A DNA stretch of 24,000 nt from Senegalia massiliensis (GCF_900626135.1 NZ_LR130785.1:629241-653240); one strand, 5' to 3'; positions 12,847-23,600 are shown, counted from the first letter of the stretch. Made by a program: numbers and translations. Notes: generated by a model not told the origin, from the letters alone.

Positions 12847-14427
12847 TTGATAAAAGTTATTATAGCAGACGATGAAAAAAGAATATTAAAACTCATAGAA
12901 AAATTAATTCAATGGGAAAAATTAGGTCTACAAATTGTAGGAAAAGCTAATGATGGTATAGAAGCAATAGAGCTTATAAAAGAAAAGAAGCCAAATATAG
13001 TTATTACTGATATTCGTATGCCTGGTTATGATGGCTTAGAAATGATAGAAAGAGCAAGAAATATAGATGAAAATTTACAGTTTATTATCATAAGTGGATA
13101 TGAACAATTTGAATATGCTAAAAAGGCAATAGGCTTTGGAGTAAAGGATTATTTATTAAAACCTATAAATAAACAAAAACTCACTAGAACATTAATTAAT
13201 GTAAAAAAACATATCAAAGAAAATATTGATATAGAAATTGTAAAGAAAGATGTTAATTTAATAAGAACATCTTTTTTAAATAATGCTCTTTTTAAAAATG
13301 AAGGATTAAATAATACTAATGTATCTCAAGTTAATGAAAAATATCATTTTAACTTTATAGAAAAATATTTTAATGTTGTTTTATTTAAAATTGATTATAA
13401 TACAAAACTATATAATGATATAACAGTTATGACTACAGAAATAGTTAATATAATCAAAGAAAACTTAAAATCAGATGTAAATGAATGTGAAATTATAACA
13501 AACAAAAATAATATATATTTAATATTAAATTATAATTTAAAACAATTAGAAAATATTGAAATATCCATACAACAGGTGCATAAAAAAATAATTGAGTATA
13601 TTATCGGAATAAAGAATTTTCAAGTAACCATTTCATATGGAAGTCAAGCTCAGAAAATTAATGATCTAAATATTTCTTTCCATGATTCTAATTCAATTAT
13701 TGAAGATAGAATACTTTATGGTAAAAACAAAATATATAAATATAAAGAAATATTACCTATAAAAAAAGAGGTAGAAGATATATTTTATGTTTTTTTCAAA
13801 AGATTTATAAAGTATGTGGAAATGTTAGATTATGCAAAAATAGAATATAGTTTTATGAAATTTAAGCAAGATATAAGCAATATGCCTTTAAGAGGAATAA
13901 ATTTAAAAGATTTTTTTCAGGAACTATTTAAAGCATACTATTTAGTATTAAAAAACAATAAATTCAAAAAGAATAATTTAAGTGAAGAACATAAAGATAT
14001 TAAAAATATTATTGATAATTCAGATTCAATAGACGGATTATTTAGTGATTCATTACAATATTTATTAGAAGATATAAATTCAATAACTAAAAAAAGCTTT
14101 CAAAATAATATGATAGAAATAATAAAAGCTAAAGAATTTATAGAAAAAAATTATATGGAAAATATAAAGTTAGAAGACGTAGGAAACTATATAGGATTTA
14201 ATCCAAGTTATTTTAGTAGTGTTTTTAAAAAAGAAACAGGCACTTCCTTTGTAGAATATCTTTCAATGGTAAGAATAGAAAAAGCCAAAGAATTATTAAA
14301 GGAATCTGATCTTAAGATTCAAGATATATCTAGTATGATTGGCTATAATGATTCTAAATATTTTACTAAGACATTTATAAAATATAGTGGCTTAAAACCA
14401 AAAGAATATAGAAAACTATTCGTGTAG
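12847..14427 (+). CDS. Response regulator, REC plus AraC-type HTH output (YesN-like) with an unusually long middle region
   Basis: REC motifs DD(8-9), D55 in VITDIRMPGYDG, and LLKP. The C-terminal AraC HTH pair runs YFSSVFKKETG...YFTKTFIKYSGLKPKEYR. TTG start is 9 nt after AGGAG. About 300 Asn/Lys/Ile-rich residues lie between the two domains. Confidence 0.88.
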   Translation: MIKVIIADDEKRILKLIEKLIQWEKLGLQIVGKANDGIEAIELIKEKKPNIVITDIRMPGYDGLEMIERARNIDENLQFIIISGYEQFEYAKKAIGFGVKDYLLKPINKQKLTRTLINVKKHIKENIDIEIVKKDVNLIRTSFLNNALFKNEGLNNTNVSQVNEKYHFNFIEKYFNVVLFKIDYNTKLYNDITVMTTEIVNIIKENLKSDVNECEIITNKNNIYLILNYNLKQLENIEISIQQVHKKIIEYIIGIKNFQVTISYGSQAQKINDLNISFHDSNSIIEDRILYGKNKIYKYKEILPIKKEVEDIFYVFFKRFIKYVEMLDYAKIEYSFMKFKQDISNMPLRGINLKDFFQELFKAYYLVLKNNKFKKNNLSEEHKDIKNIIDNSDSIDGLFSDSLQYLLEDINSITKKSFQNNMIEIIKAKEFIEKNYMENIKLEDVGNYIGFNPSYFSSVFKKETGTSFVEYLSMVRIEKAKELLKESDLKIQDISSMIGYNDSKYFTKTFIKYSGLKPKEYRKLFV

Positions 14428-14436
14428 GTGTGTGAA

Positions 14437-15450
14437 ATGAAATTTAAAAAAGATAATTATTATTTATTAGATAGAATATGGATACTTTTTATTATTAATT
14501 TTGTAGCAAATATTATAGTTTTTATATATTTATTATTTAATATTGAAACTATAAGTAATTATATTTTTTTAGCATTATGGTCTATTTTTATAATTGGAAT
14601 AGTTTATATTTCATATAAATGGGTCTATGAACCACATAAAAAGATAGCTAAAGTTTTAAAATTATTTTATAAAGGAGATATCTTCAAAGGTGTATTTAGT
14701 CTTAGAGTGCATATAAGTCATGAAACATATAAGACCTTTGCAAAGTTTAGAGAAATAATAGATACAAAAGAACTTATAGAAGGTTCCAAAAAACATGCTG
14801 AATATTTAGCACTTCAAAATCAAATCAACCCTCATTTTCTATATAATACCCTTGAAGCAATAAGGAGTGAGGCATTAATAGAAGAGGTTGATAGTATAGC
14901 AGATATGACAGAGTCTCTAGCAACATTTTTTAGATATACAATTTCAAATATATCTAAACTTGTTACTCTTAGTGATGAATTAGAAAATTTGAAAAATTAT
15001 TATAAGATTCAAAAGTTTAGATTTGATGATAAAATAAATTTAAATATTAAATATGAGATAGATGATATAGGACAAGCATTGAGAGCTAAAATCCCTAAAT
15101 TAACTTTACAACCTATTTGTGAGAATGCAATATTTCATGGATTAGAAACAAAGGTTGGTAAAGGAGAAATAACTTTAAGAATTAGAGCTACTGAAAAAAG
15201 ACTTATTATTTTAATATCAGATAATGGTGTAGGAATTGATGAAAAAAAAGTTGATAAAATAAATAAAAAACTTAGAGGAGCATCCTTAGAATATATGAAA
15301 AAAGATAGTAATAATCAAGGTGGTATAGCCTTGATTAATGTAAATAACAGAATAAAACTTATTTTTGGTGATGAATATGGTATTTATATGTATAGTAGGT
15401 TAGGTGCTGGAACTGATGTTGAAATAACTATACCATTTGTATTAGATTAA
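14437..15450 (+). CDS. Sensor histidine kinase, YesM/LytS-type (His_kinase PF06580-like plus HATPase_c), two TM helices with a loop of about 7 residues
   Basis: H-box LQNQINPHFLYNTLEAI, N-box ENAIFHGL, G-boxes DNGVGI and GGIALINV. TM1 ILFIINFVANIIVFIYLLF and TM2 YIFLALWSIFIIGIVYISY are separated only by NIETISN. The track start GTG 14428 abuts the upstream stop; ATG 14437 follows TAGGTG. Confidence 0.85.
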   Translation: MKFKKDNYYLLDRIWILFIINFVANIIVFIYLLFNIETISNYIFLALWSIFIIGIVYISYKWVYEPHKKIAKVLKLFYKGDIFKGVFSLRVHISHETYKTFAKFREIIDTKELIEGSKKHAEYLALQNQINPHFLYNTLEAIRSEALIEEVDSIADMTESLATFFRYTISNISKLVTLSDELENLKNYYKIQKFRFDDKINLNIKYEIDDIGQALRAKIPKLTLQPICENAIFHGLETKVGKGEITLRIRATEKRLIILISDNGVGIDEKKVDKINKKLRGASLEYMKKDSNNQGGIALINVNNRIKLIFGDEYGIYMYSRLGAGTDVEITIPFVLD

Positions 15451-15478
15451 TTTTAAATTTAAATAAAAGGTTGATATT

Positions 15479-16888
15479 ATGAATGGAGAAATTTTAAGAA
15501 TAGAAAATGTTAGTAGGAAGATTGACGGTATTACCTATTTAAATAATATAAATTTTAATATAAGAAAAGGAGAAATATTAGGGTTATTGCCTCTTGATAA
15601 TCATGGTAAAGAACAGCTTATTGAGTTAATTATTAAAAATTTAAATATTGATTATGGAAGAGTATATTTTGATGAAAAGCTTGTAAATTATTATGAATAT
15701 AGTGATATGCAATATAATGAGGTTTATGTTATTGATAAAAACACAAAATTAATCTCTGGGTTGAAAGTTATTGATAATATCTATGTATTAAATAATACTC
15801 TAAATCAGTTTATTATAAATGAAAATATATTAAGGAAAAAGGCAAAATCTATTTTTGAACATTTTGATTTAGACATTAATCCAGATAAATATATTTCTGA
15901 TTTATCTAAATTTGAGAAAGTTGTTGTTGAAGTTATAAAGGCTGTTATAAATGGTGCTAAATTAATAATTTTAAACGAATTATCTAATTTTCTAAGTATA
16001 AATGAGTTATATAATTTTCAGAAATTAATTAAATATTATTCTAAGAAAGACATTTCATTTCTTTACATGGCAAATCATCATGAAGAAGCATTTAAGATAT
16101 GTAATAGAGTTTGTCTTTTAGAAGATGGGAAAATAGTAAAAGTGATAGAAAAAAATGATTATTCTGATGAAATTATGTTACCTTATATAGTTGAGTTTGA
16201 TAGTAATACAAATTCTAATATATCAGATAATGAAAATACTATTATTGGATTTGAAGATTTTACTACCACTAATGTTTATAAGCTCAATATAAGGATAAAT
16301 AAAGGTGAATGTATAACCATACTTGATAAAGATAATAAAGGAATTCAAGATATAGTTGAATTTTTAAAGGGAAATCTGACACTTATTGATGGGAATATAA
16401 TCTTTAATAGAAAAACAATTAAATCTATAAGAAATCTTAATTCTCTTATAGAAAATGAAATATTATTTATACCAGAAAATCCAATAGATAATTTTTTGTT
16501 TTTTAATATGTCTTATTTAGAAAATCTAATGTTTCTTTTAGAACAAAAGCTAAATAATAATATTTCATTTAGAAAGAAAATAAAAATACTTAAAGAAAAA
16601 TATAAAATATTAGAAGATGTAGATATAGATGAAAATGATATTTCTAATTTAAGTAAAAAATCTCTGTACGATTTAATATATTTTAAAGTTTATGAATTTA
16701 AACCTAAGTTAGTTTTTCTAATGCAGCCTTTTTCTGGTGCAGATATGTATTTAAGAGCTAGAATAATTCAATTAATAAATAAACTTAAAAATGAAGGTAT
16801 AACAATTATAATTCTTGCTGTAAGCTTATCAGATACTTTAACTGTATCAGATAGACTTATAACTATAAAAGATGATAGTATTTTTTGA
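15479..16888 (+). CDS. Degenerate tandem-NBD ABC ATPase paralog (RbsA/MglA-like fold, catalytic motifs lost in both halves)
   Basis: It aligns along its length with the next gene, but the motifs differ. Walker A is LPLDNHGKEQ against GENGAGKST, and LDKDNKGIQ against GLMGAGRTE. Q-loop is VIDK against IHQE. Signature is LSKFEK against LSVSKQ, and LSKKSLYD against LSGGNQQK. Walker B is LIILNELS against ILIMDEPT, and LVFLMQPF against IVIFDEPT. Confidence 0.8.
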   Translation: MNGEILRIENVSRKIDGITYLNNINFNIRKGEILGLLPLDNHGKEQLIELIIKNLNIDYGRVYFDEKLVNYYEYSDMQYNEVYVIDKNTKLISGLKVIDNIYVLNNTLNQFIINENILRKKAKSIFEHFDLDINPDKYISDLSKFEKVVVEVIKAVINGAKLIILNELSNFLSINELYNFQKLIKYYSKKDISFLYMANHHEEAFKICNRVCLLEDGKIVKVIEKNDYSDEIMLPYIVEFDSNTNSNISDNENTIIGFEDFTTTNVYKLNIRINKGECITILDKDNKGIQDIVEFLKGNLTLIDGNIIFNRKTIKSIRNLNSLIENEILFIPENPIDNFLFFNMSYLENLMFLLEQKLNNNISFRKKIKILKEKYKILEDVDIDENDISNLSKKSLYDLIYFKVYEFKPKLVFLMQPFSGADMYLRARIIQLINKLKNEGITIIILAVSLSDTLTVSDRLITIKDDSIF

Positions 16889-16997: not shown

Positions 16998-18554
16998 ATG
17001 AAGAAAGTAGGGGTTCTTTTGAGTAATTATGCTGTTAAAATAGAAAACGTTTCCAAAAGTTTTCCAGGTGTTAAGGCACTTGATAATGTATCATTCGATT
17101 TGAAATCTGGAGAAGTCTTAGCTTTACTTGGTGAAAATGGAGCAGGGAAGTCTACTCTTATGAAAATATTATCAGGAGTTTATACAAAAGATAGTGGTAC
17201 TATAAATATATTTGGTGAAACTATTGAAGATATGAATCCAGTTAAAGCACAGGAATTAGGTATTGCAATTATACATCAGGAGTTAAATATGTGTGATCAT
17301 TTAACTGTAGCTCAAAATATTTTTTTAGGTAGAGAGATATCTAAAAAGGGTGTTTTGTCTGAGAAAAAGATGAATATAGAAGCAAAAGAAATATTAAATA
17401 AATTAAATATAGCTATAGATCCAGAGGCTTTAGTAGGAGACTTATCTGTATCAAAGCAACAGATGGTTGAAATCGCAAAGGCTCTATCAACTAATGCAAA
17501 AATACTTATTATGGACGAACCTACATCTGCTTTAACTTCTAAAGAAATAGATGATTTGTTTAAAATAATAAAAAAATTGAAATCAGAAGGTCATGGAATA
17601 GTATACATATCTCATAGATTAGAAGAATTAGAACATATAGTGGATAGAGTTACTGTATTAAGAGATGGACAATATATTACTTCTTTAGATTTTAAAGAAA
17701 CTACACTTAAAGAAATTATATCCTATATGGTTGGAAGAGAAATAAAAGAAAAATTTCCTAGAATCAAAAGTGATGTGGGAAAGAAAATATTCGAAGTTAA
17801 GAATTTAAGTGCTGGTAATTTAGTAAGAGATATTAATTTTTCAGTATTTGAAGGAGAAATAGTTGGAATAGCTGGTTTAATGGGGGCAGGAAGAACTGAG
17901 ATGACTAGAGCAATATTTGGAGCAGATTCTAAACGTTCAGGAAAAATTTTCATTGACGGCGTTGAAGTAAGTATTAATAAGCCTATAGATGCTATTAAGT
18001 CAGGAATAGTTCTTGCTCCTGAAGATAGAAAAAATGATGGATTATGTACAAAGCTTAGTATAAGAGAAAATATCTCTCTTCCAAATCTTGACTTATTAGC
18101 TCATAAATTCGGTATAGTGAATAGCAAAAAAGAAGAGGAAATGATTCAAAAAGCAGTAGAAAATTTAGATATAAGACTTGCAAGTGCTGAAGTTAATGCC
18201 GATAGTCTATCTGGTGGAAATCAGCAAAAAGTTGTAGTAGGTAAATGGCTTTCAAGAAATTCAAGAATTGTAATTTTTGACGAACCTACAAGAGGAATAG
18301 ATGTAGGATCTAAAGTTGAAATTTATAATTTGATGAATGAATTAAAAAGCAAGGGTATTGGAGTACTTTTTGTTTCTTCTGAGATGCCAGAAGTGTTAGG
18401 TATTAGTGATAGAATTTTAGTTATGGCTGAAGGTAAAATAACTAAAGAACTTGATATAAAAGATGCTACACAAAATATTATTTTAGAGTATGCTACTAAA
18501 TTTGACAAAAAGATTAACAATGAACAGATTAACAAAGTGGAGGCGAGTATTTAA
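16998..18554 (+). CDS. Sugar ABC transporter ATP-binding protein, CUT2 family, two intact NBDs (RbsA/MglA-like)
   Basis: GENGAGKST, LSVSKQQ, ILIMDEPT and ISHRL in NBD1. GLMGAGRTE, LSGGNQQK and IVIFDEPTRGID in NBD2. The true start may be TTG 17019 (MSNYAVKIENVSKSF), 5 nt after TAGGGG. ATG 16998 has no SD. Confidence 0.92.
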   Translation: MKKVGVLLSNYAVKIENVSKSFPGVKALDNVSFDLKSGEVLALLGENGAGKSTLMKILSGVYTKDSGTINIFGETIEDMNPVKAQELGIAIIHQELNMCDHLTVAQNIFLGREISKKGVLSEKKMNIEAKEILNKLNIAIDPEALVGDLSVSKQQMVEIAKALSTNAKILIMDEPTSALTSKEIDDLFKIIKKLKSEGHGIVYISHRLEELEHIVDRVTVLRDGQYITSLDFKETTLKEIISYMVGREIKEKFPRIKSDVGKKIFEVKNLSAGNLVRDINFSVFEGEIVGIAGLMGAGRTEMTRAIFGADSKRSGKIFIDGVEVSINKPIDAIKSGIVLAPEDRKNDGLCTKLSIRENISLPNLDLLAHKFGIVNSKKEEEMIQKAVENLDIRLASAEVNADSLSGGNQQKVVVGKWLSRNSRIVIFDEPTRGIDVGSKVEIYNLMNELKSKGIGVLFVSSEMPEVLGISDRILVMAEGKITKELDIKDATQNIILEYATKFDKKINNEQINKVEASI

Positions 18555-19570
18555 TGGGGACTAAAAGTAACACTAGTAAAATTAAAAAGATTTTTTCACG
18601 AAGAGGTATGGGCCAAGTAATTACAGTTTCAATAGGACTTGTAGCATTAGTCATCGTATTTGGATTATTAAACCCAACTTTTTTCTCTAGTAGAAACATA
18701 TCAAACTTATTAAGACAAATTGCACCAATTATACTTATAGGTGTAGGTCAATCATATGTATTGATTACTGCAAATATAGATTTGTCAATAGGTTCAGTTG
18801 TTGGAATGAGTACTATGATTTCTGCTACATTAATGTCAAAAGGTATGGATCCTTTGGCTGCTGTATTTATAACTTTTATTGCAGCGTTAGGAATAGGATT
18901 ATTAAATGGATTACTTATATCAAAGGCTAAGCTTCCATCATTTATAGCAACATTAGGTACTATGACTATAGCAAGAGGTATTGCACAAATTGTTAATAAT
19001 AACTATAATACAGATTCTATTGGATCACATGCTGATGGATTTAGAGATTTATTTTATTATGGAGAAACATTTGGACTATATAATACAATTTGGATAGCAT
19101 TAGGAATTTGGTTAGTATTTAACTTTATTCTTAGTAGAACTAGAACAGGTAGACATATTTATGCGGTAGGTAGTAATATGAGTGCTGCACACCTTTCAGG
19201 AGTTAATATATCTAGTACCATAACAAAAGCATATGTAGTAAGTTCTGTGTGTGCTGCAACAGTAGGTCTTATAACTACAGCTACAAGTGGTATGGGAACT
19301 ATGGATGCAGGTACTTCATATGAATTATATGCAGTAGCAGCTTCTGTAATAGGAGGTATAAGTACATTAGGAGGACAAGGAATACTTTTAGGAACTGTAG
19401 TAGGGGCATCTATATGGGGAGTGTTACAAAATGGACTTCAATTTGCTGGTGCACCTGTAGCTATTAGGAATATAGTAATAGGTATTATTGTTATAGTATC
19501 TGTTCTTCTTGACATAGTTGTAAGGGCTAATAAAAATAAATCTAAGTCTAAGCAAAAAGCAAAATCTTAA
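18554..19570 (+). CDS. Sugar ABC transporter permease, CUT2 family (RbsC-like)
   Basis: 338 aa and polytopic. It has RbsC-like blocks: IDLSIGSV, the coupling region TRTGRHIYAVGSN, and GGISTLGGQG. The ATG overlaps the upstream TAA by 1 nt (TAATG), which suggests translational coupling. Confidence 0.9.
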   Translation: MGTKSNTSKIKKIFSRRGMGQVITVSIGLVALVIVFGLLNPTFFSSRNISNLLRQIAPIILIGVGQSYVLITANIDLSIGSVVGMSTMISATLMSKGMDPLAAVFITFIAALGIGLLNGLLISKAKLPSFIATLGTMTIARGIAQIVNNNYNTDSIGSHADGFRDLFYYGETFGLYNTIWIALGIWLVFNFILSRTRTGRHIYAVGSNMSAAHLSGVNISSTITKAYVVSSVCAATVGLITTATSGMGTMDAGTSYELYAVAASVIGGISTLGGQGILLGTVVGASIWGVLQNGLQFAGAPVAIRNIVIGIIVIVSVLLDIVVRANKNKSKSKQKAKS

Positions 19571-19621
19571 ATTAAGTTATTAAAGGGAAACCTTTAAAAA
19601 TAAAAAAATGGAGGGAATAAA

Positions 19622-20554
19622 ATGAAAAAGAAAATATTGGCAATGATGTTAATTGTATTTCTAAGTATAACAGTAATAGTAGGATGTTCTGATGATTCAG
19701 ACAGTGGTAGTGGTGATTCTCACAAAGTATATCTAATAACTATGGATCAAATGGATCAACATTGGGTATCAGTAGATGAAGGAGCTAAAGAAGCAGCAGA
19801 TGAATTAGGTAATGTAGATTATGAATGGTTAGCACCTGACGTAAAAGATGATGCAAAACAAATAGAAAGTATAAATAATGCAATTGCAGGTGGAGCTGAA
19901 GCAATATTATTAGCAGCTAATGGACCAGATGCTGTAACTCAAGCACTTAAGGAAGCAGAAAAAGAAGGTATAAAAATTGTTTATGTTGATTCACCAGCTG
20001 ATTTTCCAGCAGTTCAAACTTTAGCAACAGATAATGAAGCAGCAGGAAAACTTGCAGGGGAAGAAATGAAAAAAGCATTAGAAGAAAAAGGTATTAATGC
20101 AGGTAAAATTGGTGTAGTAAGTGTTAATGCATCTACAGATTCTACTATACAAAGAGAAAAAGGTTTTAGAAGTGCATTTGAAGGAACAGATTTTGAAATA
20201 CTAGAAACTCAATATGGAGATGGTGATGCAGCAAAATCAAAAGATATAGCTGCTAACTATATAACCCAAGATGTAGTAGGAATATTTGGTGGAAATGAAG
20301 GTTCTACTGTTGGAACTGGAAATGCTATAAAAGAAGCAGGTGGAGAAGTTATAGGAGTAGGTTTTGATAAATCTGATACAATATTACAAATGATTGAAGA
20401 AGGACATATACTTGCTACTATGTCACAAAATCCTGATGTAATGGGTTATGAAGGAGTAAAGACAGCAGTAGATGCACTTGAAGGAAAAGAAATTAATGAA
20501 GAATATGTAGATACAGGTGTTTCTGTAATAAACAAAGAATCACTTGAAAACTAA
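19622..20554 (+). CDS. Sugar-binding lipoprotein of the ABC importer (RbsB-like, periplasmic-binding-protein type I)
   Basis: Signal peptide with lipobox VIVGCS, followed by a Ser/Asp/Gly linker. The fold appears PBP type I. RBS GGAGGG. Confidence 0.88.
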   Translation: MKKKILAMMLIVFLSITVIVGCSDDSDSGSGDSHKVYLITMDQMDQHWVSVDEGAKEAADELGNVDYEWLAPDVKDDAKQIESINNAIAGGAEAILLAANGPDAVTQALKEAEKEGIKIVYVDSPADFPAVQTLATDNEAAGKLAGEEMKKALEEKGINAGKIGVVSVNASTDSTIQREKGFRSAFEGTDFEILETQYGDGDAAKSKDIAANYITQDVVGIFGGNEGSTVGTGNAIKEAGGEVIGVGFDKSDTILQMIEEGHILATMSQNPDVMGYEGVKTAVDALEGKEINEEYVDTGVSVINKESLEN

Positions 20555-20573
20555 TAGAGTTCCAAAATAAATT

Positions 20574-20600
20574 AGAGAGGTTACAAAAGTAACCTCTTTA
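20574..20600 (+). terminator. Stem-loop after the binding-protein gene (weak terminator or mRNA stabiliser)
   Basis: agaggttac-aaaa-gtaacctct followed only by ttta. The next gene's SD begins 11 nt later, so read-through is likely. Confidence 0.45.
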
Positions 20601-20622
20601 AACTATATATGAGGTGATATTA

Positions 20623-21273
20623 TTGAAAAATAAAACAGAAAGAATATTAAATGAGTTAATTGAAAAATATCCAAAATTAGATTATTTAGAAGAAAGATTA
20701 AGAAATTTAATAGAAAAAACAGTAAAATCAATAAGAGGAAATGGTAAAATATTAGTATGTGGGAATGGTGGTAGTGCCTCTGATAGTGAACATATAGTAG
20801 GAGAATTATTGAAAAAATTCTATATTGATAGACCAATTGAAGATGATTTTAAAAATAATTTGAGAAAAAATTGTAATGAATATGAATATGAATATATGAG
20901 TAGTAATATGGAAGGAGCAATTCCAGCAATTTCCCTTGTTTCTCAAACAACATTTTTAACAGCATATGGTAATGATGTGAATTTTGATATGATTTATGCT
21001 CAACAAGTATATGCATATGGAAATGAAAATGATATATTGATAGCTTTATCAACATCTGGGAACTCTTCAAATGTTTATTATGCTGCAAAAGCAGCAAAAT
21101 CAAAAGGAATGATGGTTATATCATTAACAGGAGAAGATGGTGGAAAATTAAAAAGCACTAGTGACATATTGTTAAATGTACCTTTAGATGAAACATATCA
21201 AGTTCAAGAGTATCATCTTCCTCTATATCATTTTATATGTAGGGCATTAGAATATGAAATTTTTGGAGGTTAA
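20623..21273 (+). CDS. gmhA: SIS-domain sugar-phosphate isomerase of the GmhA (sedoheptulose-7-P isomerase)/DiaA family
   Basis: It aligns with E. coli GmhA blocks: KILVCGNGGSASDSEH, AISL...YGNDVNFDMIY, LIALSTSGNSSNV and MVISLTGEDGGKL...QEYHL. An insert of about 25 aa is present (IEDDFKNNLRKNCNEYEYEYMSSNMEG). TTG 20623 is 6 nt after GAGGTG; the track start is GTG 20614. Confidence 0.7.
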   Translation: MKNKTERILNELIEKYPKLDYLEERLRNLIEKTVKSIRGNGKILVCGNGGSASDSEHIVGELLKKFYIDRPIEDDFKNNLRKNCNEYEYEYMSSNMEGAIPAISLVSQTTFLTAYGNDVNFDMIYAQQVYAYGNENDILIALSTSGNSSNVYYAAKAAKSKGMMVISLTGEDGGKLKSTSDILLNVPLDETYQVQEYHLPLYHFICRALEYEIFGG

Positions 21274-21276
21274 TTT

Positions 21277-22227
21277 ATGTTTGTAATAGGATATGATATA
21301 GGAGGTACAAAAACTGCTTTTATATTATCTCAAGTAAATGATTCTGGAATAAAAATTCTCCAAAGAGAAGAATTTAAAACAACAAGAGATTGGAAAAATG
21401 TTATAGGACAGTTAATGGAAAAATCAAAAATAGCTATAAAAGATAACGATATATCTTTAGATGATTTGAAATTAGGAATTTCTTGTGGAGGACCTCTAGA
21501 TAATAAAAAAGGACTTATATTATCTCCACCTAATCTTCCTGGTTGGGATAATGTTCCTGTAGTAGATTATATTCATGAAAAAATAGGTGTAAAACCAAAC
21601 TTGCAAAATGATGCAGATGCATGTGCTTTAGCTGAATGGAGGTATGGTGCTGGTGTAGGCTATGAAAATTTAATTTTTCTTACATTTGGTACAGGGTTGG
21701 GAGCAGGTCTTATATTAAATAATAAGCTATATACTGGAGCATCTAATATGGCAGGAGAAGTAGGACATATTAGATTAGAAGATGAAGGACCTATTGGATA
21801 TGGTAAATCTGGAAGCTTTGAAGGGTTTTGTAGTGGTGGAGGAATAGCTCAATTAGCTCAATTTGAAGCTAAATCTCTAAGAAACAAAGGATTAAGAGCA
21901 TCATTTGATAAAAGAGAAATTAAAGATATAACAACAAAAGATGTATCTATAGCTGCAGAATTAGGAAATAAAGATGCTTTAGATATATTTAAGACTTCTG
22001 GTAGATATTTTGGAAAAGGATTATCTATACTTATAGATATATTAAATCCTGAAATTATAGTTGCTGGAAGTATTTATAAAAGAGCAGGTGAATTCTTAAA
22101 AGAAGAAATGTACAATGAAATTGAGAAGGAAGCACTTAAATCATCAAGTAAAGTAGTTAAAATAGTACCTGCAATGTTAGGTGAAGAAATAGGAGACTAT
22201 GGTGCTATAGTAACAGCTTTAGGGTAA
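21277..22227 (+). CDS. ROK family sugar kinase (glucokinase-like, substrate unknown)
   Basis: N-terminal ATP motif IGYDIGGTKTA. NDADACALAE. ROK signature region GTGLGAGLILNNKLYTG...GEVGH. It lacks the Cys-rich zinc motif of the next gene. Confidence 0.85.
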   Translation: MFVIGYDIGGTKTAFILSQVNDSGIKILQREEFKTTRDWKNVIGQLMEKSKIAIKDNDISLDDLKLGISCGGPLDNKKGLILSPPNLPGWDNVPVVDYIHEKIGVKPNLQNDADACALAEWRYGAGVGYENLIFLTFGTGLGAGLILNNKLYTGASNMAGEVGHIRLEDEGPIGYGKSGSFEGFCSGGGIAQLAQFEAKSLRNKGLRASFDKREIKDITTKDVSIAAELGNKDALDIFKTSGRYFGKGLSILIDILNPEIIVAGSIYKRAGEFLKEEMYNEIEKEALKSSSKVVKIVPAMLGEEIGDYGAIVTALG

Positions 22228-22249
22228 TTTAAATTAAGGGAGGCTTACT

Positions 22250-23128
22250 ATGTTAGGATCAATTGAAGCAGGTGGTACTAAATTTGTATGTGCTGTAAGC
22301 GATGAGGAATTTAATTTAATTGATAAGACATCATTTCCAACTACAGATCCAAAATCAACACTAAAAGAAATATTTAATTTTTTTGATAAATACAAAGATA
22401 TAAAATCTATTGGTATAGGATCATTTGGTCCTATAAATATTAATAAAAGCTCAGATAAATATGGATACATTACATCAACTCCTAAAACTAAATGGAAAAA
22501 TTTTAATTTTCTTGGAGAGATGAAAAAACACTATAATATACCTATTAGTTGGACTACAGATGTTAATGCAGCATGTTTAGGAGAATATTATCTAGGAAGT
22601 GCAAAAGGAAGTAATAGCTGCATTTATCTTACTGTAGGAACAGGTATTGGTGGAGGAGCTATAATAAATGGAGATTTTATGGAAGGATTTAGTCACCCAG
22701 AAATGGGACATATTTTAATTAAAAAGCATGTACAAGATAAATATGAAGGATTTTGTCCTTACCATGGAGATTGCCTGGAAGGACTTACAGCAGGACCTTC
22801 AATAGAAAAAAGATATGGTGTAAGTGGAAACAAATTAGATAAAAATCATGAAGTATGGAAGTTTATTTCTTATTATTTAGCTCAAGCTCTAGTAAATTAT
22901 ACATTAATAATAAGACCAGAAAAGATAATATTAGGTGGAGGAGTAATGAATCAAGATCATATGTTAAGTTTAGTAAAAAAGGAATTTAAATCATTACTTT
23001 CAGATTATGTAGAAGTACCTAATATAGATGATTATATAGTAAAACCTTCATTAAAAGATAATGCAGGTATTATTGGAGGTTTAGTATTAGCTTCTAAAGA
23101 ATGTGGATATTGTGGAAAAACATATTAA
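22250..23128 (+). CDS. ROK family fructokinase/mannokinase-type kinase (GmuE/Mak-like)
   Basis: MLGSIEAGGTKFVCAV closely resembles the N-terminus of Bacillus GmuE/YdhR fructokinase. Zinc motif HPEMGH...CPYHGDCLEG. RBS AAGGGAGG. Confidence 0.85.
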   Translation: MLGSIEAGGTKFVCAVSDEEFNLIDKTSFPTTDPKSTLKEIFNFFDKYKDIKSIGIGSFGPININKSSDKYGYITSTPKTKWKNFNFLGEMKKHYNIPISWTTDVNAACLGEYYLGSAKGSNSCIYLTVGTGIGGGAIINGDFMEGFSHPEMGHILIKKHVQDKYEGFCPYHGDCLEGLTAGPSIEKRYGVSGNKLDKNHEVWKFISYYLAQALVNYTLIIRPEKIILGGGVMNQDHMLSLVKKEFKSLLSDYVEVPNIDDYIVKPSLKDNAGIIGGLVLASKECGYCGKTY

Positions 23129-23182
23129 ATTTTTCGGAAAATGTGGATATTATATTAAATTATATAAACGACGATGGGGCTG

Positions 23183-23221
23183 TTTCATAACTAATTGATT
23201 AGTTATGAAATGCTCTTTTTT
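23183..23221 (+). terminator. Rho-independent terminator of the sugar operon
   Basis: 13-bp stem tttcataactaat/attagttatgaaa, then tgctctttttt. Confidence 0.7.
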
Positions 23222-23280
23222 ATGTTCTAGTAAATAAGTATGCTTTATAATTCTTAATAAAATTAAATATATATTATTGC

Positions 23281-23600
23281 TATATTGCTTCCTTATATCT
23301 AGTAAAGCCTACTTTGTTAGATCGTACTTTATTACTTAATTTATTTATATTTATTGCAATGGATAAAAGCTTCATCTCTGCAATAATCTTTTCCATAGTT
23401 TTATGTCTAAATCTTGAGTAATTCATTCCAGTTTTTATATAAGAAAATATACTTCGGCTTGAATTGAACGATTCATTCTTTCAATAATTTTTTCCTCTGT
23501 AGTTATATTTTCTTCGAATTTTTTCTTAAGTTCTCAAGTCTCTCTGAAATGTATATTCTTTTTTTCCTGTAATTCTATCTACTCTTAAAATAAACTCATT
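23281..23600 (-). pseudogene. Frameshifted C-terminal remnant of an IS1182/IS5-like DDE transposase
   Basis: The reverse-strand translation gives ...KKKFEENITTEEKIIERMNRSIQAEVYF, then a frameshift, then FSYIKTGMNYSRFRHKTMEKIIAEMKLLSIAININKLSNK... with stop at 23281-23283. This resembles the conserved R..S.vE..Fg.iK...g..RF..RG..kv..E..l.aiA.Nl.Kl transposase tail. No intact ORF and no terminal repeats are seen. Confidence 0.5.

Follow-up and report, generated by a model that had tools for sequence, protein, structure and literature searches.

A GmhA-type gene in a sugar importer operon

To our knowledge, the only role described for GmhA is the first step of heptose biosynthesis, and the enzyme has been pursued as an antibiotic-adjuvant target. 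It opens the GDP-D-glycero-α-D-manno-heptose pathway (GmhA-HddA-GmhB-HddC) of Aneurinibacillus thermoaerophilus, gut Firmicutes, and Bacteroidota. Other described systems combine a ROK kinase with uptake or with a further sugar-phosphate enzyme. In the Escherichia coli D-allose operon, the CUT2 importer AlsBAC and the ROK kinase AlsK are followed by a sugar-phosphate isomerase/epimerase; in the glucomannan operon of Bacillus subtilis, gmuE-gmuF encodes the YdhR fructokinase and a class I ManA; and MurK-MurQ of Clostridium acetobutylicum joins a ROK kinase to a SIS-fold enzyme in the recycling of N-acetylmuramic acid. Here we describe an operon in a 24,000-nucleotide stretch of DNA from Senegalia massiliensis, a bacterium of the class Clostridia (GCF_900626135.1 NZ_LR130785.1:629241-653240; hereafter, the window), in which a GmhA homologue with a SIS domain lies between a CUT2 importer and two ROK kinases, ROK1 and ROK2 (window positions 16998-23221).

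The operon comprises six tightly spaced genes (16998-23128) in a low-GC window (~30% GC) whose genes all lie on the plus strand. They encode a CUT2 ABC importer ATPase with tandem nucleotide-binding domains (16998..18554; two ABC_tran matches), a CUT2 permease (18554..19570; BPD_transp_2, 132 bits), a lipoprotein substrate-binding protein (SBP) that probably binds a manno-configured aldose (19622..20554; Peripla_BP_4, lipobox ..IVGC), the GmhA homologue (20614..21273; PF13580 SIS_2, 73.5 bits), the 316-amino-acid (aa) Cys-less kinase ROK1 (21277..22227; ROK PF00480, 170 bits), and ROK2, a 292-aa accessory fructo(manno)kinase of the YdhR/GmuE/ScrK type (22250..23128; full-length ROK match). No other gene overlaps the SIS gene, which is separated from ROK1 by 3 nucleotides (nt), and the gap between ROK1 and ROK2 is 22 nt. 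All six genes had been proposed in an earlier note on this DNA and were recovered by domain searches at the same coordinates; the note had also seen neither nucleotide-activation nor glycosyltransferase genes within the operon, and none was found there.

The operon shares features with each of the described systems and departs from all of them. With the GDP-heptose pathway, it has in common the GmhA family and fold, a 28-aa insert, and the active-site residues, but HddA, GmhB, and HddC were not found in the S. massiliensis genome, gmhA is placed in an importer operon and coupled to a ROK gene, and the proposed flux runs from aldose phosphate to ketose phosphate. As in the D-allose operon, CUT2 import would be followed by ROK action on the free aldose and isomerization to a central ketose phosphate. 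However, a GmhA-type SIS protein takes the place of RpiB/AlsE as the isomerase, a two-component system with a degenerate ATPase takes that of RpiR in control, and no Als equivalog cutoff was reached by the window proteins. ROK2 is close to YdhR, and relatives pair ROK2 with ManA as gmuE-gmuF does, whereas uptake here is by an ABC transporter rather than a phosphotransferase system, the class I ManA gene lies outside the operon (G000:C1:718909-719841, 66 kb away in the same genome), and a ROK1/GmhA branch is added. Finally, the likeness to MurK-MurQ lies in the translational coupling of a ROK kinase and a SIS-domain enzyme acting on the sugar 6-phosphate that the kinase makes, but the window SIS protein is of the GmhA type (model E value, 1e-47, versus 1e-4 for the MurQ etherase model).

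We are highly confident that this importer operon is catabolic and that a true GmhA-type enzyme and a dedicated ROK kinase act together in it, outside nucleotide-heptose synthesis. As to the sugar, we regard it as evenly balanced whether ROK1 and GmhA feed D-glycero-D-manno-heptose into central metabolism. In the route we propose, the lipoprotein SBP and the CUT2 transporter would import one or more manno-configured aldoses under two-component control. In one branch, ROK1 would phosphorylate the hydroxyl of the terminal carbon of D-glycero-D-manno-heptose; GmhA, working opposite to its biosynthetic direction, would convert the resulting heptose-7-phosphate to sedoheptulose-7-phosphate, which would enter the pentose phosphate pathway. 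In the other branch, ROK2 would phosphorylate mannose or fructose, and the distant ManA, which in relatives lies within the operon, would complete the path to fructose-6-phosphate. The sugar identities and the direction of flux are what we infer; the gene content, its conservation, the coupling of ROK1 to GmhA, the negative outcome of the searches for known nucleotide-heptose pathway genes, and the unchanged GmhA active site were observed directly.

The GmhA-ROK1 pair and its genomic company

By every sequence test applied, the SIS protein is a GmhA, and isomerase activity is predicted. Its gene more likely starts at TTG 20623 than at 20614, as judged from the sequence context: the TTG stands behind a GAGGTG ribosome-binding site and gives a protein of 216 aa, the same length as its homologues. 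The closest solved structure is Burkholderia pseudomallei GmhA (phmmer against PDB, E value of 2e-40). The AlphaFold model of the SIS protein (predicted local distance difference test score, 85) had only GmhA or its paralogue DiaA among its top 37 Foldseek matches (template modeling [TM] scores of 0.63 to 0.84), and its TM scores were 0.72 to 0.83 on GmhA structures versus ~0.55 on MurQ-type SIS proteins. The zinc/catalytic tetrad H60, E64, Q198, and H206 aligns with H64, E68, Q175, and H183 of the B. pseudomallei enzyme, and the phosphate-site residues S54, S146, T147, and S148 are retained. The protein scored below the curated GmhA equivalog cutoffs (TIGR00441, 151 bits against a cutoff of 209; NF010546, 161 against 276) because an insert splits the match into two stretches; clearly biosynthetic GmhA homologues also carry this match-splitting insert. 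No other GmhA homologue is present in the genome.

The insert, which the earlier note had put at about 25 aa and described as absent from E. coli GmhA, is real, with 28 residues (75 to 102) that have no counterpart in proteobacterial GmhA and are modeled as a helix hairpin of two short helices. As a sign of new function it was rejected, since HddA- and HddC/GmhB-linked GmhAs carry it too; occurring in both ROK-linked and biosynthesis-linked GmhAs, it is uninformative on function. A homologue in Neobacillus niacini, 50% identical and equal in length, lies between a GHMP kinase gene (HddA type) and an HddC/GmhB fusion, with glycosyltransferase genes around it.

We classified 83 gmhA loci, of which 80 were fetched from species genomes and the others were the window, L002, L004, and L005. 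A ROK1 homologue (42 to 69% identical) adjoins gmhA in 33 of them, including four with the whole transporter block, and HddA and/or HddC/GmhB genes are present in 20. The ROK-linked loci span Clostridia, Paenibacillus, Chloroflexota, Verrucomicrobiota, Tannerellaceae, and a spirochaete. Compared column by column in an alignment, 32 ROK-linked and 20 HddA-linked homologues had invariant catalytic, zinc, and phosphate-site residues and agreed at every conserved polar position; the few columns in which the two groups differed lay away from the catalytic and phosphate sites. They also interleave in a maximum-likelihood tree, in which the clade of the window GmhA is sister to two HddA-linked proteins (Shimodaira-Hasegawa-like approximate likelihood ratio test support, 95). 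The simplest reading of the alignment is that GmhA chemistry and the substrate pair would be unchanged between the two groups.

The coupling of ROK1 to GmhA extends to whole genomes. Our main counts come from one sample of 200 genomes of the class, which are related and hence are not independent samples. ROK1 orthologues formed a separate population (E values of ≤1e-75 and 45 to 55% identity, with the next ROK proteins at 1e-45) and were found in 36 of the 200 genomes. GmhA was present in 35 of these 36, adjacent to ROK1 in 28 and on another contig in 7, and the sole ROK1 genome without GmhA is a 73%-complete assembly. One member of the same family, at 85% completeness, has GmhA without ROK1. 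Beyond S. massiliensis itself, a 250-genome sample of the phylum yielded a single ROK1 genome, and it has GmhA too.

Biosynthetic genes show the opposite distribution. Among the 35 genomes with both ROK1 and GmhA, we found no genuine HddA and no GmhB or HldE above the cutoff, with sub-cutoff GmhB-like matches in two, whereas five of the six genomes with GmhA and no ROK1 encode HddA and four of the six encode a GmhB-type phosphatase above the cutoff, near gmhA in four. ROK1-linked and HddA/GmhB-linked GmhAs are mutually exclusive in this sample. In the S. massiliensis genome (99% complete), HddA, the HddC/GmhB fusion, GmhB, HldE above the cutoff, GSU2086, and LyxI were all not found, and neither were HddA, the HddC/GmhB fusion, GmhB, and HldE in four other carrier genomes. 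With no known nucleotide-heptose genes, GmhA is left without a known biosynthetic outlet in these organisms and would depend on, or serve, ROK1. The absence of HddA, GmhB, and HldE from this genome, together with the mutual exclusion in the sample, upholds the suggestion of the earlier note that the layout is catabolic rather than biosynthetic. Judging from gene content, the only visible fate of heptose-7-phosphate in this genome would be sedoheptulose-7-phosphate; a transaldolase is encoded at C1:378240.

A biosynthetic role might still be served through salvage, if imported heptose or sedoheptulose were phosphorylated, passed through GmhA, and built into a surface glycan by enzymes unrelated to HddA, HldE, and GmhB. 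Such a scheme would fit L013 and L027, where an HldE-like kinase, a HAD phosphatase, and a GSU2086-family gene adjoin ROK1-GmhA, as well as L022, where a PGM/PMM mutase gene stands behind the pair, and the verrucomicrobium Oleiharenicola, which has the pair plus HddA, HddC, and GmhB elsewhere in its genome. We nevertheless consider it very unlikely. HddA, GmhB, HldE, and the cassette of HldE-like kinase and GSU2086 were not found in the S. massiliensis genome or in the four other carriers, the gene lies within an importer operon controlled by a two-component system of the sugar type, and there is no nearby glycosyltransferase, the downstream cluster making a nonulosonic acid.

The HldE-like kinases also bear on the heptose assignment itself. 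These PfkB proteins (124 to 161 bits, far under the HldE cutoff) were found in 12 of the 200 genomes, every one of which has both ROK1 and GmhA. Beside gmhA, the kinase gene forms a trio with a GSU2086-family gene (NF052581, 411 bits) and a HAD hydrolase gene (L013:6064-8946, L027:4818-7700, and L026:10657-13659). We read the HldE-like kinase as independent heptose-type company for ROK1-GmhA.

Importer, kinases, and the identity of the sugar

The importer is well conserved and fits none of the curated specificities. The ATPase, at ~580 bits against the XylG and RbsA models, is under every curated cutoff, and no sugar-specific CUT2 equivalog cutoff (ribose, xylose, allose, arabinose, galactose, or autoinducer 2) was reached; the SBP scored at most 109 bits against the RbsB model (cutoff, 337). 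Across related loci, the ATPase is 63 to 83% identical, the permease is 69 to 82% identical in most and down to 55% in L092 to L094, and the SBP is 70 to 88% identical across many genera, which is unusually high. The order regulator, kinase, degenerate ATPase, ATPase, permease, SBP, GmhA, and ROK1, with or without ROK2, recurs in Anaerovirgula multivorans (L002), Oscillospiraceae PP1C4 (L005), Clostridium malenominatum (L090), Proteiniclasticum ruminis (L091), and many metagenome contigs, and Caproiciproducens R1 (L025) has the same genes with the ROK1-GmhA pair placed upstream of the regulatory block. P. ruminis is described as predominantly proteolytic, to which we gave no weight. In three related loci (L092:8404-10026, L093:8472-10076, and L094:9001-10269), the SBPs reach 420 to 540 aa through an additional Peripla_BP domain, which is either partial or complete.

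Homologous transporters fetched from metagenomes with the SBP as query were classed by the genes directly 3' of the SBP gene, with counts taken over the 45 loci that had at least 3 kb of downstream sequence; many metagenome loci end early. The commonest named gene set was a ROK1-type gene plus GmhA, with or without ROK2 or ManA (16 of 45). ManA without GmhA, with or without ROK2, followed in three loci, a ROK1-type gene only in two, and a D-lyxose/D-mannose isomerase (LyxI) with DUF4432 and a PfkB fructokinase-like kinase in one (L092); the remaining 23 had none of these sets. L099, with less than 3 kb downstream and hence outside the count, has ROK2 and ManA behind the transporter. Ten SBP pocket positions, mapped on the E. 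coli ribose-binding protein, are identical between the GmhA-linked SBPs and the L092 SBP (P0130). Because ManA or LyxI follows homologous transporters and the L092 SBP shares these ten pocket residues, we predict that the transporter family takes a manno-configured aldose, with mannose itself very probably included. The earlier note had held that specificity for a common hexose would speak against its proposal. That concern is partly borne out, in that the ManA/LyxI links of the transporter family make mannose probably one of the substrates.

The simplest sugar for such a transporter would be mannose alone, and in a plain mannose operon ROK1 would be a mannokinase, the GmhA homologue a promiscuous or repurposed mannose-6-phosphate isomerase, and ROK2 an enzyme for fructose. 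GmhA chemistry, of which mannose-6-phosphate isomerization is the C6 analogue, yields a manno-configured aldose phosphate; ManA with ROK2, or the D-lyxose/D-mannose isomerase, stands behind homologous transporters; GH2 and GH38 mannosidase-type genes neighbor the pair in other genomes; and ROK1 retains the residues that bind an aldopyranose in glucokinases. We consider this reading unlikely. A GmhA that merely replaced a missing ManA was rejected, as ManA is present in the S. massiliensis genome, enriched in carriers (28 of the 35 genomes with ROK1 and GmhA versus 76 of 166 others), and able to coexist with GmhA in one operon. In seven of the 16 loci (L096, L100, L122, L133, L148, L152, and L154), ManA shares the gene string with the ROK1-type gene and GmhA; four of these ManA proteins were checked (L096, L100, L133, and L148) and score above the manA equivalog cutoff, as do three further ManA proteins encoded next to homologous transporters. 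A second mannose-6-phosphate isomerase would be redundant in such genomes, and this coexistence suggests that GmhA is not simply the mannose-6-phosphate isomerase of the operon. If the product of ROK1 were mannose-6-phosphate, ManA would suffice, and it would be unexplained why ROK1 is almost never found without GmhA; the ROK1 product seems, on these distributions, to need GmhA specifically. The active site shared with HddA-linked GmhAs, the interleaving of the two groups in the tree, and the restriction of HldE-like kinases to genomes with the ROK1-GmhA pair likewise argue against mannose as the only sugar.

The two kinases themselves differ, as the earlier note had recognized, in that ROK1 is without the Cys-rich zinc motif and ROK2 carries a variant of it. 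ROK1 has the ASKHA ATP motif YDIGGTK and the catalytic pair N111-D112; like ROK2, it matches the ROK family over its full length and has no N-terminal DNA-binding domain. The zinc motif GHx(9-11)CxCGxxGCxE is missing from ROK1 (GHIRLEDEGPIGYGKSGSFEGFCSG), where GYGKSGSFE replaces CxCGxxGCxE and the His and Glu of the motif are kept. Aligned with Streptomyces griseus glucokinase, ROK1 matches at DIGGT, N111/D112, E161, H164, and E182, with the Cys ligands replaced, and so retains the Asn-Asp, Glu, His, and Glu that hold the aldopyranose in glucokinases. Loss of the zinc motif is kept in all 24 ROK1 orthologues checked, and the remodeled loop, GP.GYGK.GSFEGFCSGGGI, is a subfamily motif conserved across phyla. 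We propose that ROK1 is a manno-aldose (heptose 7-) kinase and the partner of GmhA.

ROK2 has a C..H..C stretch at the zinc-motif position, which we read as a fructokinase-type variant. It matches the B. subtilis YdhR fructokinase over its full length (PDB 1xc3, also 3lm9; E value of 6e-97) and scored 373.5 bits against the ScrK model NF045550 (cutoff, 400). ROK2 is present in L002, L090, L096, and L100 and was not found in L005, L091, and L098; it is paired with ManA in L099, L106, and L110 and also stands alongside it in L096 and L100. Two kinases for two substrates, as had been suggested, fits what is seen in relatives, where ROK2 goes with ManA and ROK1 goes with GmhA, in some cases within one operon, but nothing in the data points to a disaccharide as the source of both.

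Several observations weigh against D-glycero-D-manno-heptose as the substrate of ROK1 and GmhA. The ties of the transporter family to ManA and LyxI and the GH2 and GH38 mannosidase-type hydrolases beside the pair elsewhere point to mannose. In five loci, a ROK1-type gene is the only kinase gene beside both ManA and GmhA, so the model needs ROK1 to accept mannose as well as heptose. L092, L107, and L116 have a ROK1-type gene and no GmhA within the fetched stretch. A transaldolase adjoins the pair only in L021 and was rejected as a regular neighbor. Heptose in lipopolysaccharide is most commonly the L-glycero epimer, and GmhA would not take that epimer back to sedoheptulose-7-phosphate. Literature searches turned up no account of growth on free D-glycero-D-manno-heptose; a search on GmhA activity toward mannose-6-phosphate found nothing. 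On the supply side, GDP-heptose pathway genes are present in 20 of the 80 fetched loci and are common in the gut and rumen genomes of that sample; therefore, heptose glycans should be available where carriers of ROK1-GmhA live.

A different mannose-like or unusual sugar, such as the L-glycero heptose epimer or a deoxy- or amino-heptose, might instead be converted to a ketose phosphate that needs further steps. The binding pocket is unlike those of all solved CUT2 proteins, and the SBP substrate could not be deduced from solved binding proteins (best E value, 1.7e-30, with assorted ligands among the matches). Moreover, the pair occurs in varied glycan-degradation loci (GH2, GH38, GH29, GH78-like, esterase, and PGM/PMM), and the HldE-like kinase is also present in a third of carrier genomes. 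However, unsupervised neighbor clustering of 26 ROK1-GmhA loci found no further conserved partner except the transporter block in four, so the product should already be a central metabolite, and an active site that does not differ from that of the biosynthetic enzymes favors the usual pair of substrates. We therefore think another sugar improbable and retain D-glycero-D-manno-heptose, alongside mannose, as the proposed substrate.

Regulatory block, surroundings, and significance

Three plus-strand genes precede the importer: an AraC/YesN-type response regulator (12847..14427; Pfam Response_reg and HTH_18/HTH_AraC), a YesM/LytS-type histidine kinase (14428..15450; Pfam His_kinase and HATPase_c), and a degenerate ABC-ATPase paralogue (15479..16888; weak ABC_tran match, 48 bits). 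The regulator gene accompanies the importer in L002, L005, L025, L091, L096, L098, L100, and others, the histidine kinase gene adjoins it in related loci too, and a homologue of the degenerate ATPase holds the same position in almost all of them. Because other genomes keep these genes together with the importer, the functional unit is predicted to start upstream, at the block 12847-16888. The block has a GC content of 20 to 23%, versus ~30% for the transporter and kinase genes, and its proteins are much less conserved between genomes (33 to 66% versus 70 to 83% identity).

Within the operon, a hairpin lies between the SBP and SIS genes (20572..20601, plus strand; -16.8 kcal/mol, z = -7.1). There is no U run 3' of it, and it may be an mRNA stabilizer or partial terminator. 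An intrinsic terminator closes the operon (23176..23221, plus strand; hairpin of -18.7 kcal/mol, z = -5.4, followed by UUUUUU), and only short open reading frames follow it (23280-23426).

Heptose-glycan genes immediately beyond the window would have spoken for biosynthesis according to the earlier note, and none was found there. The next cluster makes a nonulosonic acid of the legionaminic/pseudaminic type. It lies ~4.3 kb past the operon (L095:4268-11063; G000:C1:656667-663462) and consists of seven codirectional genes, none of them for heptose, encoding a 4,6-dehydratase, a DegT aminotransferase, a CBS-domain nucleotidyltransferase, a PglD-like acetyltransferase, NeuB, a hydrolyzing 2-epimerase, and a CMP-transferase. 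Directly 3' of them (L095:11070-13572) are an odd regulator-enzyme fusion, with a PEP_hydrolase-like domain joined to an AraC helix-turn-helix domain, and then a UPF0261 gene.

Elsewhere, the pair is embedded in other kinds of sugar loci. L022:2915-12214 is a glycan-degradation string with genes for GH2, GH78-like, and GH29 fucosidase enzymes, a GDSL esterase, a ROK1-type kinase, GmhA, and a PGM/PMM mutase; the mutase may convert heptose-7-phosphate or mannose-6-phosphate to the 1-phosphate. In Paenibacillus endophyticus (L039:6127-11592), a GH36-like gene (Raffinose_syn), an FGGY kinase gene, gmhA, and ROK1 stand in a row. The FGGY kinase is closest to xylulokinase (232 bits, below the cutoff), and searches of this genome for HddA, GmhB, and HldE found none of them.

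Overall, 35 of the 41 GmhA homologues in the sampled class genomes lie outside the nucleotide-heptose pathway, coupled to a zinc-less ROK and often in uptake or glycan-degradation loci. The annotation “sedoheptulose-7-phosphate isomerase” implies biosynthesis and is probably misleading here. Four points are new in this analysis: ROK1-GmhA has an ABC importer that is dedicated, conserved, and accompanied by a regulatory block; its co-occurrence and mutual exclusion are backed by counts; ManA and GmhA can stand side by side in a single operon; and the HldE-like kinase co-occurs exclusively with the pair. No paper describing a catabolic ROK/GmhA module or the breakdown of heptose turned up in our literature searches, and a search on PtmF likewise returned nothing relevant. 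Tentatively, and with slightly less than even confidence in the claim as a whole, we suggest that Cys-less ROK1 and GmhA form the first described route of heptose catabolism or salvage, carried by about one-sixth of the sampled class species, exclusive with nucleotide-heptose synthesis, and supplied by an importer that also serves mannose. If true, this would be the first route by which seven-carbon sugars of the cell envelope are catabolized and would assign a role to a ROK subfamily that is widespread but orphan, and it would suggest that anaerobes of gut, rumen, and sludge recycle the heptose glycans of their neighbors.

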